Source of the DNA: a virus
Lineage: Duplodnaviria > Caudoviricetes
Direction: 5' to 3' (one strand)
Length of the DNA stretch: 64,000 bases
IMG/VR virus record: IMGVR_UViG_3300031938_000001
Span: 1-64,000 of that record
Shown: piece after piece, positions 43,158 through 52,326 of the stretch
Position numbering within the stretch: position 1 is the stretch's first letter
How the letters are laid out: every line of letters begins with the position of its first letter
Notes under the pieces: generated by a model
What the model saw: only the letters and a program-made list of their open reading frames with translations
Databases searched by the model: none
What the model was told of the DNA's origin: nothing
Program-made: the position numbers and the translations under genes

Positions 43158-43589
43158 GTGACCGAGCGCCCACTGCCATACGCGACAGACGAGAAGCGCT
43201 GGGGCGTTCTCTACAGGTGTTCCTTCGGGACCATCGGTGCGAGCGCGCTCTACGCAGTCCTCTACCTCGTGCGCCCCGAACAGGTCGAGCGAAGCCTGCT
43301 CGGGGCGCTGGCGACCCATCAAGCATGGGCCGGTGTGCAGTTGGCGCTTTCGCTAGGGCTGCTGCTCGCGCAGCGGCATGGTGGCCCGTGGTTGCGGATG
43401 GCTCACGCCATCGGCCTCGGTGTGCAGACGTTCTACGCTCTCATGTGGCTTGCGTCCGGGCTGATTGACCGCTCCGGGCTGTTCGTGGCAGTGGGAGTGG
43501 GGTCGATTGCACTCATGCATTGGGCGATGTCCAGCGTTCGCTGGCCGCTCAAGAACACACACAAAGGACGCGGGCGTGGGCGGAAGTAA
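43158..43589 (+). CDS. Multi-pass membrane protein of lysis cassette
   Basis: About four hydrophobic segments. Confidence 0.7.
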   Translation: MTERPLPYATDEKRWGVLYRCSFGTIGASALYAVLYLVRPEQVERSLLGALATHQAWAGVQLALSLGLLLAQRHGGPWLRMAHAIGLGVQTFYALMWLASGLIDRSGLFVAVGVGSIALMHWAMSSVRWPLKNTHKGRGRGRK

Positions 43590-48489: not shown

Positions 48490-48795
48490 CTATGCGGCGG
48501 GTCCGACATCGCTGGGCTGCTGCTGCCCGTCGATGGGGACTCGTCTCTTGCGGGGGACAATGCCGCCCCCCCACATGCCGTACTCACTGTCGGTGCGCTC
48601 TTGGTAGGAGCGGCACTCAAAGATTACGGGGCATGTGGCGCAGACATTCCGGCCGGGCTTGTGCGACTGGCCGCGCTCAGGAAAGAACCACTCGGGATCG
48701 ACTCCCGGCTTCCTGCACTCGGCCAGTCGCTGCCACGTGTCGTCCGATTCGAGAAAGAGGAATCGGGCGTGCGGAGCGTCTACGCCGGGGGAACT
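48490..48795 (-). CDS. whiB: WhiB-family Fe-S transcription factor domain without its own start codon; likely frameshift product
   Basis: Hand-translated: WQRLAEC-x24-CATCPVIFEC...YGMWGG; no ATG/GTG/TTG between in-frame stop 48973-48975 and the WGG Met. Confidence 0.85.
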   Translation of the reverse strand, partial: SSPGVDAPHARFLFLESDDTWQRLAECRKPGVDPEWFFPERGQSHKPGRNVCATCPVIFECRSYQERTDSEYGMWGGGIVPRKRRVPIDGQQQPSDVGPAA

Positions 48796-49106
48796 TTTCC
48801 CGAGCGTCCGGTGGGCGCCGCCTCGGAGGATGCAGCCTCGGCCTTGTCGCCCAGCCCGAGCGGGAGCACCATCTGGCCGGGGACCTGCTCGTCGTCGTCG
48901 GCCGGGGTGGTGATGCCCGCCTCGGGATTCTCCGTCAACGACGCCTCTGCGATGCTCTCGACGGTGGCGAGGTCAGCCGGCGAGGGCTCTGCCATCTCGA
49001 ACAGGGCGTCAGGGTTGGTGGGTCGGGGGCTGAAGTCGGTGACGCCGTGGGGAACGACGTTGCCGTCGAAGAAGGTGACGGGGTGAACCGTCCGAACTTC
49101 GGTCAT
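48780..49106 (-). CDS. Acidic, probably disordered protein carrying QMVLPL and ending at slippery G GGA AAA
   Basis: AAAGG RBS; heptamer at 48795-48801. Confidence 0.8.
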   Translation of the reverse strand: MTEVRTVHPVTFFDGNVVPHGVTDFSPRPTNPDALFEMAEPSPADLATVESIAEASLTENPEAGITTPADDDEQVPGQMVLPLGLGDKAEAASSEAAPTGRSGKVPPA

Positions 49107-49169
49107 GTGAACTATGCCTTTCGGTTAGAGGTGCCGCTCAGGCCGATCATAGCCTCGAGTTGGTCTTAA

Positions 49170-49874
49170 TCAAACGAACAGGGTATCCATCTCCAGCCGG
49201 TTTCGGCTGTGTCGAACATGGTCGGCGTCCAACTCGATGCCGATAGAGTTGAGGCCCAACTGCTGAGCCGCCTTGGAGGAACTGCCAGACCCGCTGAACG
49301 GGTCCACGACGAGATCGCCGGGGTTGGTGCTGATCTTGAGGAGCTCTTCGAGGAGCGGGACGGGCTTCTCAGTCGGGTGGATGATCTTCGAAGGGGGAAC
49401 CTTCTCGTAGTTGAGCACTCCCGAGCGCCGGTATGGCACCTTGCGCAGGCCCTTCTTGGCGTAGAGGATCAACTCGTGGCCGCAGCCCCAGTTGGAGTCG
49501 ATGTCCCCGGTGCCGGGCTCCATCTTGTTCCAGATGAGCATCATCTTGTACTTGAACCCATGCCGGGACAGCGAGCGCACGGCGTCGATCCAGTCGCCCA
49601 CGATGTCCCAGCGGGTGAACACGTACAGTTCCGCCTCGTCAGCGCACTTGGGCAGCACCACGTCCATCACGTCTTGGAACAGCCCGAGCGCCCCGGTGAG
49701 GTCGAGGTCGTTCGCCACGTCCTTGACCCAGCGCAGACCCTCGGGGGTGGTCGCGTGCCGCGAGCGGTAGTTGACCCCGTACGGCGGGTCGGTCAGGACG
49801 CACTTGATCTCACCCTCGATGTTGTGGCCCAACTCGAGGCTGTCTCCGTGCCAGATTTCGTTGGTCGTCATCAT
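49170..49874 (-). CDS. DNA N6-adenine/N4-cytosine methyltransferase (beta class)
   Basis: LTDPPYG, HPTEKP, DPFSGSGS; start ATG 49874. Confidence 0.9.
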   Translation of the reverse strand: MMTTNEIWHGDSLELGHNIEGEIKCVLTDPPYGVNYRSRHATTPEGLRWVKDVANDLDLTGALGLFQDVMDVVLPKCADEAELYVFTRWDIVGDWIDAVRSLSRHGFKYKMMLIWNKMEPGTGDIDSNWGCGHELILYAKKGLRKVPYRRSGVLNYEKVPPSKIIHPTEKPVPLLEELLKISTNPGDLVVDPFSGSGSSSKAAQQLGLNSIGIELDADHVRHSRNRLEMDTLFV

Positions 49875-50203
49875 CTTCCTCCGAGGGTCGGATAGTCGGC
49901 AAAGTCGGGCGGAGAGCACTCATGACTGTGTATCTCGGAACACTCGGGGCACACGAAGGTCATGCTCGGCTTCGCACCCACGAGGGTGATGCTGGCAGGC
50001 ATGATCTCGAGGTGAAGGGTCGCCCAGCCCGTTGCCTCGATACTGAGGTTCAGGGCGTGGATGTTGTGGACGATCTCGCCATTGGAGTCATACACGCGAG
50101 TGCCGTGCGTGGTGCCGTCGGTGAACACCCGCCAGTCGCCACGGGCGTTGGCGGTGTCCATGGACGACTCGGGGGCGTCGGGGATCGGGTCGGCGATGTC
50201 CAT
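49871..50203 (-). CDS. Hypothetical protein with C-terminal CPEC
   Basis: TGATG coupling at 50203. Confidence 0.65.
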   Translation of the reverse strand: MDIADPIPDAPESSMDTANARGDWRVFTDGTTHGTRVYDSNGEIVHNIHALNLSIEATGWATLHLEIMPASITLVGAKPSMTFVCPECSEIHSHECSPPDFADYPTLGGR

Positions 50204-50715
50204 CAGAAAAGCCCCTCCGTTCGAGTGAAGAACGGCTCGTCGCTGGTCTCCGGGGTCGGGTCGAGCAGCCCGGCAAGGTCGATCACCGGGGGCGCCCCAG
50301 CGGGCCGGATCGTGATGGCGATCATCGGCTCCACGTCCCGCCCCTGCTCCATGATCCACGACTCGACGTGGGCCACGTCGCGGTCATTGGCGAACAGGCT
50401 GCCCTGCAGCGCATCCTCCAGCGCCTTCTGGAGGTTGGTCGCGTCGGCGTGGTGCTTGCGAGCGCGCACCTCGTCGTCGGTGGTGTAGTCGGGCAACTGC
50501 CTCCAGAAGTAGAACCGGAGGTCGATGCGGCCTTCATACTTCCCGTTGATCGGTTCAGAGACAAGCTCCTTGACCGCCTGCTGGTAGGCGCGGAGTGCCT
50601 CGTTCTTGTAGACCATCGGGAAGGGCTTGCCGCCCCGCCGACCAACCGAGACGTTGGGTGCCGTCCAAGGTTCGGGGTTGATCGGCAGGGCGAGCGTGGT
50701 CACGTCGTGGTTCAT
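50203..50715 (-). CDS. rusA: RusA-like Holliday junction resolvase
   Basis: DATNLQKALEDALQG...NDRDV; start ATG 50715. Confidence 0.85.
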   Translation of the reverse strand: MNHDVTTLALPINPEPWTAPNVSVGRRGGKPFPMVYKNEALRAYQQAVKELVSEPINGKYEGRIDLRFYFWRQLPDYTTDDEVRARKHHADATNLQKALEDALQGSLFANDRDVAHVESWIMEQGRDVEPMIAITIRPAGAPPVIDLAGLLDPTPETSDEPFFTRTEGLF

Positions 50716-51098
50716 GCCGCTGCCGCCTCTGCGGCGTTGAGCAGCCCGAGCATCTCGACGTGGGTCATGCGGGCGAGCACGTCGGCGTCGTCCGGCTCGT
50801 TGGGGTAGACAAGGTAAACGTCCAAGTCGAGCGCGATGGCGATCCGCAACTCGAGCCGGGCGCCACGCGACTGCTCCCACTCGGGGAGCAGCGCGATACT
50901 CGTGCACTTGACCAACTGCTTGATGCCTTCGCGCATGTAGTAGTCCCACGCGAGGGTGGTGTCGCCGCCGTTGTCGGCAGGGTTCTCTACGAGCCACCCC
51001 ATGCCGAGAAGCCGCGCGGCGGTGAGGTTGAAGAGGGGGAAATTGAACTCCGGCCGCCCGGTCATCGGGCCAGCCACGTAGACGATGCCGGGGATCAC
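50712..51098 (-). CDS. DUF4406 / nucleoside 2-deoxyribosyltransferase-like protein
   Basis: YVAGPMTG...NF..F, NPA, LPEWEQSRGARLE. Confidence 0.85.
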   Translation of the reverse strand: MIPGIVYVAGPMTGRPEFNFPLFNLTAARLLGMGWLVENPADNGGDTTLAWDYYMREGIKQLVKCTSIALLPEWEQSRGARLELRIAIALDLDVYLVYPNEPDDADVLARMTHVEMLGLLNAAEAAAA

Positions 51099-51156
51099 TT
51101 CTTCGCCTCCCTGCAAGGGCAGTTCTCGCCAGAGCACTTGTCGATCCTCACGTCGC

Positions 51157-52326
51157 TCACTCCGCCACCGGACCCACGTCGGTCTTGCGACGGGGCATGA
51201 GCCACGACTCGAACCCGAGCCCGTCCCACACCTTCACCGGCACGCCGTTGCGGTCGGTGCGGTAGCCGAGGCTCACGGTGTCGGTGCGCGGCTGGTCGAG
51301 GCAGTCGGTGATGGTGGTCGGCGTGAAGTGGATGACGAACTCCTCGGGGGCGCCCTCCTCCTCGATGGCGGGGTGGGCAACCGTCTCGGTGGAGATGTCC
51401 ACCTCGTCGGTCATGGTGCCCACCGAGGGGACGGTCATCTCGAGGTAGATCGTGTCGGGCGTGAAGGTGCACGTCACGATGGGGTAGCGCTCGCCCTTGG
51501 CGATGAGCCCGGTCATGCGGGTGAGCGCCTCGCGGAGCCGGATGCGCGGGGCGGTGACGACCCGGTTGAAGATCGTCGCGTCCATGATCTTCTCGATGTT
51601 GGGGTAGCCCATGTCGTAGATGATGGCCCTCATCTGCGTGTACTCGTCCGGCATGATGAGGACGTAGTTCGGGTTGGCCCCGAGGCGCACGTCCTCGACG
51701 CTCTTGAGGATCGGGCCGAGGGTGTCCATCGGCACGGTCACGGGGGCTTCCAGCGCCGCGTCGCACGGGGTCCGCACGAGCCGGTACTTGTCGGTGGCGA
51801 AGATGTGCGTGCCGGTGAGGTGGATGCCGCTGAACGGCACGGCATCCTTGTCGCAGGCCCACGCCGCCTGTGCCACGCGAGCCGGGAAGTCCTTCACGTC
51901 GTGCAGGGCGTCCGGGTCGAACGGCTCCCACCGCTTGTAGGAGTCGGCCTTCATGACATTGATCGACGCCTTGGCCTTGCCGCTGCGGAGCATGATGTTG
52001 CCACCGTGGTCCTCGCGGGTGATCGTGACGGTCTTGCCGCTGCCGATGGGCATCCCGGCGCAGAACCCAGCAAAGATGCTCGACGGCAGGCGCCAGTCGA
52101 AGTCCTCGTCGCTGTGGATCTCGAGCGGCTGAACCCACTCGAGGTAGTCCACCTCGAGGTTGGTCGCCTTGATGGTGATCTGGCGGCCCGGCTCGGCGAA
52201 CGGGCGACCCTCGATGAGGATGCCCGCCGCCTTGTCGAACGCCATGCCCTTGCTCGGGGCAACGCGAGCCGCCTTGCCGACCGCCGACGCGAGGCCGGCT
52301 GTCTCGAACGTGACTGAGATGGTCAT
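51157..52326 (-). CDS. dnaN: DNA polymerase III beta sliding clamp homolog
   Basis: 389 aa; ATNLE, ATDKYRL, YPNIEKI motifs of beta clamp. Confidence 0.85.
   Translation of the reverse strand: MTISVTFETAGLASAVGKAARVAPSKGMAFDKAAGILIEGRPFAEPGRQITIKATNLEVDYLEWVQPLEIHSDEDFDWRLPSSIFAGFCAGMPIGSGKTVTITREDHGGNIMLRSGKAKASINVMKADSYKRWEPFDPDALHDVKDFPARVAQAAWACDKDAVPFSGIHLTGTHIFATDKYRLVRTPCDAALEAPVTVPMDTLGPILKSVEDVRLGANPNYVLIMPDEYTQMRAIIYDMGYPNIEKIMDATIFNRVVTAPRIRLREALTRMTGLIAKGERYPIVTCTFTPDTIYLEMTVPSVGTMTDEVDISTETVAHPAIEEEGAPEEFVIHFTPTTITDCLDQPRTDTVSLGYRTDRNGVPVKVWDGLGFESWLMPRRKTDVGPVAE

Follow-up and report, generated by a model that had tools for sequence, protein, structure and literature searches.

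In bacteriophage T4, late transcription is coupled to the gp45 clamp through gp33 and gp55 (PMC2988020). In phage Mu, the late-transcription factor MuC docks on the host DnaN via clamp-binding motifs, which links transcription to replication; the MuC motifs lie at both termini of the protein (QHDLF and QPDLF) and were reported family-wide, with only DLF present in Mor (PMC12867686). The locus described here lies in positions 1 to 64,000 of the IMG/VR virus record IMGVR_UViG_3300031938_000001, a complete 72.8-kb genome (72,827 bp) with direct terminal repeats from an uncultured actinobacterial phage, and this 64-kb stretch is referred to below as the window. On its minus strand, a small acidic open reading frame (ORF), termed the N-ORF, overlaps a second frame encoding a WhiB-like (Wbl) domain and carries the hexapeptide QMVLPL, and a beta sliding clamp is encoded nearby. 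The initial annotation of the window read this combination as a possible clamp-tethered WhiB. The sturdier discovery at the locus, held with high confidence, is a WhiB gene that yields two products and depends on a frameshift.

Genes that make two products by -1 frameshifting include lambda G/GT (G_GGA_AAG) and Escherichia coli dnaX (tau/gamma). Such genes have been covered in a review (PMC5009743). Wbl genes are common in actinophage replication modules, where they are found beside Cas4-type exonucleases (PMC8612146, PMC13013590). For clamp binding, the published hexameric consensus is QLxLxL, of which the Pol IV motif QLVLGL is an instance (PMC4564189).

A WhiB-like gene in two overlapping frames

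The N-ORF (48780-49106, minus strand, stop codon included) encodes a protein of 108 amino acids, the short form. In the -1 frame relative to it, a segment of 101 codons plus a stop codon (48490-48795, minus strand) encodes a leader and a Wbl domain, which matched PF02467 at 5e-14 (53 bits against a curated cut-off of 23.6) as well as PHROG 472 and others. The Cys codons of this domain, at 48717, 48642, 48633 and 48615, follow the spacing C-x(n)-C-x2-C-x5-C and are accompanied by DPEWFFPERG, a GMWGG turn (G-[VIM]-W-G-G) and a basic tail. The domain resembles described Wbl proteins (PF02467; PMC8612146, PMC13013590) in its four-Cys Fe-S motif, FFP aromatic patch, G-x-W-G-G turn and basic tail, and on the strength of family membership it would be expected to hold a [4Fe-4S] cluster and to bind region 4 of sigma-A.

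Unlike ordinary Wbl genes, which are free-standing and have their own start codon, the gene in this lineage is start-less and relies on a -1 frameshift. The WhiB frame is open over 48972-48493, and no ATG, GTG or TTG was found in the whole of this open frame ahead of Cys1 at 48717; in contrast, ordinary phage WhiB genes start 11-15 codons before Cys1, as seen in five further IMG/VR WhiB loci. A slippery heptamer, G_GGA_AAA (48795-48801, minus strand), is in phase with the N-ORF, where the sequence reads TCG GGA AAA GTT, and lies inside the frame overlap, four codons before the N-ORF stop codon. The product of a -1 slip at this site comprises N-ORF residues 1-104 followed by 101 residues, which together make a long form of 205 amino acids. 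As with lambda G/GT and dnaX, an X_XXY_YYZ heptamer thereby provides for a short and a long protein with a common N-terminal part in a set ratio. The gene differs from these precedents in that the long product is a transcription factor, and in that clades have come to differ in the position of the slip site and in the heptamer, with the two-frame design kept. Hairpins that might act as frameshift stimulators are predicted, although about 27 nucleotides downstream of the heptamer and within conserved coding sequence. One of them lies at 48735-48770 (minus strand); its CGATTC...GAATCG pairing in the window is replaced by CGCTTC...GAAGCG in the relative L004, a compensatory pair change, albeit far from the slip site.

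Relatives of the gene were gathered by several routes. HMMER searches against 1.84 billion cluster representatives returned just two true N-ORF homologues, both of about 100 amino acids, and no single ORF in which the N-ORF and WhiB are fused. Seven more loci belonging to the window's clade came from the contigs of these two homologues and from contigs found through clamp homologues. A search with the WhiB frame led to phages of Gordonia and Tsukamurella whose genes are in the same order, and a search with the clamp led to Rhodococcus ReqiDocB7 and Gordonia Orchid, GordDuk1 and Jumbo. Several clamp-bearing contigs (L009, L016-L018 and L025) end before the WhiB locus. Searches of 50,697 phage records by megablast with the locus and by tblastn with the N-ORF gave no match, locus searches of IMG/VR with the N-ORF or its alignment gave no relatives, and scans of IMG/VR and metagenomes for the slip-site sequence pattern found one other phage only, twice.

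All 16 lineages compared have WhiB in the -1 frame of a small upstream ORF, with an in-phase X_XXY_YYZ heptamer in the overlap. Three kinds of heptamer occur, at three different positions: GGGAAAA in six lineages (the window and five relatives), CCCAAAA in five (L013, ReqiDocB7, Orchid, GordDuk1 and Jumbo) and CCCTTTA in a further five, namely Gordonia CS1-CS4 and Tsukamurella TIN2 (C_CCT_TTA loci at L002:4651-5249, L003:4654-5252, L005:6989-7593, L006:7004-7632 and L020:6075-6739). G_GGA_AAA is identical in sequence and position in L004, L007, L008, L010, L011 and L012, and L013 has C_CCA_AAA at the same position; in L004, L008 and L013 the two frames overlap by just 31-43 nucleotides, with the heptamer within. 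The -1-frame stretch from the heptamer to Cys1 is also conserved, as SSPGVD..ARF.F in the window's clade and as RC.G.C...C.CGEG in the CS, Orchid, Jumbo and ReqiDocB7 lineages. Because three heptamers are found at three positions across 16 lineages, the frameshift is considered real and old.

Some features of these loci could suggest that no fusion is made, and that WhiB is translated from a non-canonical or internal start, or that the change of frame reflects an assembly error or transcriptional slippage. An ATG lies 5-12 codons before Cys1 in L007, L008 and L019, the last of which lacks a canonical heptamer, and in the window a CTG precedes Cys1 by three codons; if RNA polymerase inserted an extra A into the A4 run, the product would be identical to that of a ribosomal slip. 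This explanation is, however, difficult to square with in-phase heptamers of three kinds in 16 lineages, with the conservation of the -1-frame sequence between heptamer and Cys1 or with the position of Cys1 upstream of the N-ORF stop codon in the Gordonia phages, and runs of three to four bases are short for transcriptional slippage. It is regarded as very improbable. The long and short forms proposed in the initial annotation thus find support at the sequence level in the start-less -1 frame, the in-phase heptamer and its recurrence in 16 lineages, and a single gene with two products, the longer of which joins the N-ORF arm to the Wbl domain by a -1 frameshift, is very likely.

About 80 sequenced Gordonia and Tsukamurella phages have this gene. 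At these loci, GenBank records show a 'WhiB' fragment of 33 or 66 amino acids or no annotation, and in the Gordonia CS/TIN2 records the upstream ORF is labelled 'hypothetical' or, in RefSeq, 'endonuclease'. Literature searches returned no report of a WhiB frameshift.

Two variations on the two-frame arrangement can also be seen. Outside the window's clade, the -1 frame opens with a conserved extra four-Cys module, R-(L-V)-C-x-G-x-C ... C-x-C-G-E-G (L002:4912-5100; L021-L024), which lies ahead of the WhiB domain and may form a second metal site; the window's clade has no such module and carries an acidic linker in its place. A more distant relative (L019:14378-14868), whose clamp is 39% identical, keeps the N-terminal motif of the arm and the -1-frame WhiB. 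With no canonical heptamer across its 244-nucleotide overlap and an ATG five codons before Cys1, this phage may use a non-canonical slip site or separate initiation.

The acidic arm and its hexapeptide

The description of the N-terminal partner of WhiB as acidic was correct, with 18 Asp and Glu against 5 Lys and Arg residues and an isoelectric point of 4.1. Pfam and PHROG searches placed the N-ORF in no family, and its matches in the ESM Atlas were at noise level only. An AlphaFold2 (AF2) model built on eight homologues had a mean predicted local distance difference test score (pLDDT) of 62, a predicted template modelling score of 0.22 and one helix, and the ESM Atlas model had a pLDDT of 0.31. 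Given the lack of a family and the low confidence of both models, the arm is taken to be an acidic disordered region with short conserved islands. The sole segment conserved in 16 of 16 lineages, as judged from the alignment and a 16-lineage table, is an N-terminal motif at residues 8-28 (HPVTFF..G....TDFSPR; 49023-49085, minus strand) with the consensus (H/N/Q)P(V/L)(T/S)F ... xDFxP(K/R). An amphipathic helix is predicted by AF2 at residues 43-56 (PADLATVESIAEAS; 48939-48980, minus strand); block 41-50 has the highest mean pLDDT (81), and EPxPxDLAxIE in this region is conserved within the window's clade. What recurs throughout the family is the frameshift, together with the (H/N/Q)PVTF...DFxP(K/R) motif at the N terminus and the WhiB domain. 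Ahead of the slip site, the arms of the Gordonia CS/TIN2 phages (L002, L003, L005 and L006) have a D/S-E-L-F element as well as three conserved (Q/K/T)-T-A-F-(E/Q) repeats, and A-L-F-E-M is found in the window's clade at a place comparable to these hydrophobic islands.

QMVLPL occupies residues 78-83 of the arm (48858-48875, minus strand), at exactly the position given in the initial annotation and in the context ...DDDEQVPG-QMVLPL-GLGDK..., and is shared by the short and long forms. The clamp-binding motif of Hda is QLSLPL. The claimed likeness to hexameric clamp-binding motifs holds, as the sequence fits QLxLxL (PMC4564189), and the consensus positions Q1, L/M2, L4 and L/F6 are occupied accordingly in QMVLPL of the window, QMTLPL of L007 and the QLELPL found twice, in L004 and L010. 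These Q[ML]xLPL sequences share Q1, L/M2, L4, L6 and a flexible setting with the motifs of Pol IV and Hda, from the latter of which QLELPL differs by one residue. Structures and mutants have established the Pol IV and Hda motifs, which are located at protein termini, whereas the present, putative motif is an internal one that precedes the slip site by 21 residues. In the AF2 model, the motif segment is disordered (pLDDT of about 54 over residues 71-90), with only helix 43-56 ordered.

Constraint on the peptide itself can be gauged from the four carriers, whose N-ORFs are 56-60% identical. The Q, L, P and L residues are invariant among them, the flanking linker has diverged with indels, and synonymous changes are seen at both Leu codons of the motif (CTC/TTG and CTC/CTG/CTT), which together point to selection on the peptide. 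In composition-preserving shuffles of this protein, a clamp-class motif appeared in 0.7% of trials, and the strict hexamer pattern occurs twice in about 18,250 amino acids of crude gene calls from the window. These observations bear on another explanation, in which the hexapeptide has no partner and is shared through recent descent or weak constraints on the linker. Such a chance resemblance would account for the confinement of the motif to one subclade and its absence from 12 lineages, and the motif class is short and degenerate. It would account less readily for an invariant Q/L/P/L in a linker that has acquired several indels, for the synonymous Leu codon changes or for the low rate per protein in shuffles, and it is thought unlikely. 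Among 12 independent lineage groups, two were found to carry a clamp-like motif, more than the 0.16 expected from shuffles (P about 0.01, for a pattern chosen post hoc); the second of these groups is Gordonia CS2/CS3, with QPSLF.

Several points weigh against clamp docking. The enrichment pattern was picked after the data were seen, which also leaves more room for chance. The initial annotation had expected a clamp-binding motif to be conserved, and at the family level this largely fails: Q[ML]xLPL is kept in the window, L007, L004 and L010, or 4 of 16 lineages, and is absent from the other 12 that have the same gene. All 12 of these encode a clamp in the same module, which counts against docking as well. 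Co-occurrence with a clamp, suggested as a check in the initial annotation, is uninformative because the whole replication module is inherited together. The motif segment has been lost altogether in L008, nothing similar is seen in L013, and in L011 there are just DLF and SLSLV. In four lineages (Orchid, GordDuk1, Jumbo and ReqiDocB7) the slip comes after just 32-51 residues, and their long forms therefore have no comparable linker.

A second clamp-like motif, QPSLF, is found in Gordonia CS2 and CS3, in frame 0 after the slip site. As a consequence of this position it is missing from the WhiB-bearing long form and is present in the short form only. It also overlaps the conserved -1-frame Cys module (the C-A-A-L-A-L segment), and its counterpart reads EPSLF in TIN2, EPSQP in CS1 and AELSP in CS4. 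Both points tell against a clamp function, and QPSLF may have arisen incidentally through dual coding. A role for it as a clamp motif of the whole family was rejected, given its location after the slip, its overlap with the -1-frame Cys module and its absence from CS1 and CS4.

The same evidence can be read in another way, with the hexapeptide as a functional short linear motif whose partner is not a sliding clamp. Candidate partners would include RNA polymerase, sigma-A, another phage replication or recombination protein and the arm's own helix, with the arm chiefly positioning or regulating the WhiB domain. The motif is constrained at the amino acid level, but the family at large does without it, and the element conserved throughout is a different, N-terminal one; moreover, an LPL-type hydrophobic motif in an acidic disordered region does not by itself specify a clamp as partner. 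Set against this are the exact fit to QLxLxL at each specified position (two of the four carriers have M in place of L at position 2), the failure to match any other known motif class and the rise of a second clamp-like motif in another clade of the same gene. A partner other than a clamp is accordingly viewed as possible but doubtful. For docking of Q[ML]xLPL on a beta clamp in the window phage and its three closest relatives, a prediction from sequence, a probability of about 0.35 is assigned. Whatever its role, Q[ML]xLPL is a lineage-specific add-on and not the mechanism of the whole family.

The one other match to the strict hexamer pattern in the window, QLALSL in a 143-amino acid protein (43158-43589, plus strand), was rejected as a clamp motif because it lies in a transmembrane segment. 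This protein has a holin-like composition and a basic RGRGRK tail.

The phage clamp and the surrounding genes

The beta clamp reported in the initial annotation (51157-52326, minus strand, 389 amino acids) was confirmed as DnaN-type by full-length homology to three-domain bacterial clamps. It matched PHROG 947, 'DNA polymerase processivity factor', at 1.4e-51 over residues 2-381, and a profile built from 81 homologues, many with PF00712, PF02767 or PF02768, matched bacterial beta clamps in PDB at 1e-28 over profile positions 32-363 of 370. The C-terminal tail W-[LV]-M-P-x-R is conserved. In the complete 72.8-kb genome, no polymerase of family A, B or C (no match to PF07733, PF00476 or PF00136) and no clamp-loader domain (no match to PF13177) was found. 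As the genome has no recognisable polymerase or clamp loader, the clamp appears to be an orphan with no obvious phage partner; a non-replicative job for it is conceivable on the same grounds, and without a PF13177 match a host loader would be needed, as in Mu. A DnaQ-like exonuclease is encoded alongside the orphan clamp.

The window has a G+C content of 65.5%, and every gene between 47 and 56 kb lies on the minus strand, forming a replication/recombination arm. This arm comprises genes for an SNF2-type helicase, a helix-turn-helix protein, an RNase T/DnaQ-like exonuclease, the clamp, a DUF4406/nucleoside deoxyribosyltransferase-like protein, RusA, a small ORF, an N6/N4 methylase, the N-ORF/WhiB pair and a PD-(D/E)XK Cas4-type nuclease. 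The run from the clamp to the Cas4-type nuclease is co-directional and unbroken, with the clamp and the N-ORF 2 kb apart. The assignment of both genes to one operon was thus right as to shared strand and uninterrupted direction; co-transcription itself is plausible. A weak sigma-70-like promoter match, TTGATT-16-TATGAT (49146-49173, minus strand), was picked up by a consensus scan in the 63-nucleotide gap between the methylase and the N-ORF, directly upstream of the latter. Two such matches were found against 1.3 expected from shuffled sequence, a frequency close to that of chance. Besides read-through from the clamp arm, transcription of the N-ORF/WhiB pair may start from a promoter of its own.

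A possible link between clamp and RNA polymerase

Most ribosomes on the N-ORF very likely terminate and yield the 108-amino acid short form as the more abundant product, and some slip back one base on G_GGA_AAA into the start-less WhiB-like [4Fe-4S] domain. The resulting 205-amino acid long form would fuse the disordered arm to a domain of a type known to bind the primary sigma factor at its region 4. If the hexapeptide docks on a clamp, Q[ML]xLPL would occupy the hydrophobic cleft of a beta clamp, either the orphan clamp of the phage or that of the host, and both forms would gather at clamps loaded on replicating DNA. There, the long form could bridge the loaded clamp (via Q[ML]xLPL) to sigma-A and RNA polymerase (via WhiB) and switch on replication-dependent genes, and the orphan clamp would become a mobile platform for transcription. 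With the short form as a competitor for the cleft, the rate of frameshifting would set the balance, or gain, of the system. Replication-coupled transcription of the T4 or Mu kind through a clamp-tethered WhiB is quite unlikely overall.

As with T4, a phage-encoded clamp could serve as a mobile activator on which small RNA polymerase-binding proteins dock by short tails. However, T4 has its own polymerase and clamp loader and its gp45 is a PCNA-like trimer, whereas the clamp here is DnaN-type and neither of the other components was found; gp55 is also sigma-like, whereas WhiB proteins bind the host primary sigma factor. As with MuC and Mor, a transcription factor carries near-consensus bacterial clamp motifs whose strength varies over the family. 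MuC differs in being a DNA-binding protein of the Mor/C family that uses terminal pentapeptides and the host clamp, compared with a Wbl Fe-S protein, a frameshift, an internal hexapeptide and a phage clamp at the present locus. The motifs of MuC are also family-wide, unlike Q[ML]xLPL, and the clamp role proposed here is a prediction.

Should the proposal prove true, the role of the orphan clamp could be explained, in a way open to testing, by a sigma-binding protein that carries a clamp-docking peptide, and the coupling of late transcription to replication known from T4 and Mu would be extended to Actinobacteria. It would represent the third independently evolved case of clamp-coupled phage transcription, after T4 and Mu, and the first with a Wbl protein. 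If the motif binds, the short form would be a natural competitor for the clamp cleft, which in this group of bacteria is a validated antibiotic target; if it does not, Q[ML]xLPL would amount to a linker motif peculiar to one lineage of a recoded gene that is notable in other respects. That gene encodes a transcription factor expressible only by programmed -1 frameshifting, an arrangement conserved in at least 16 actinophage lineages.

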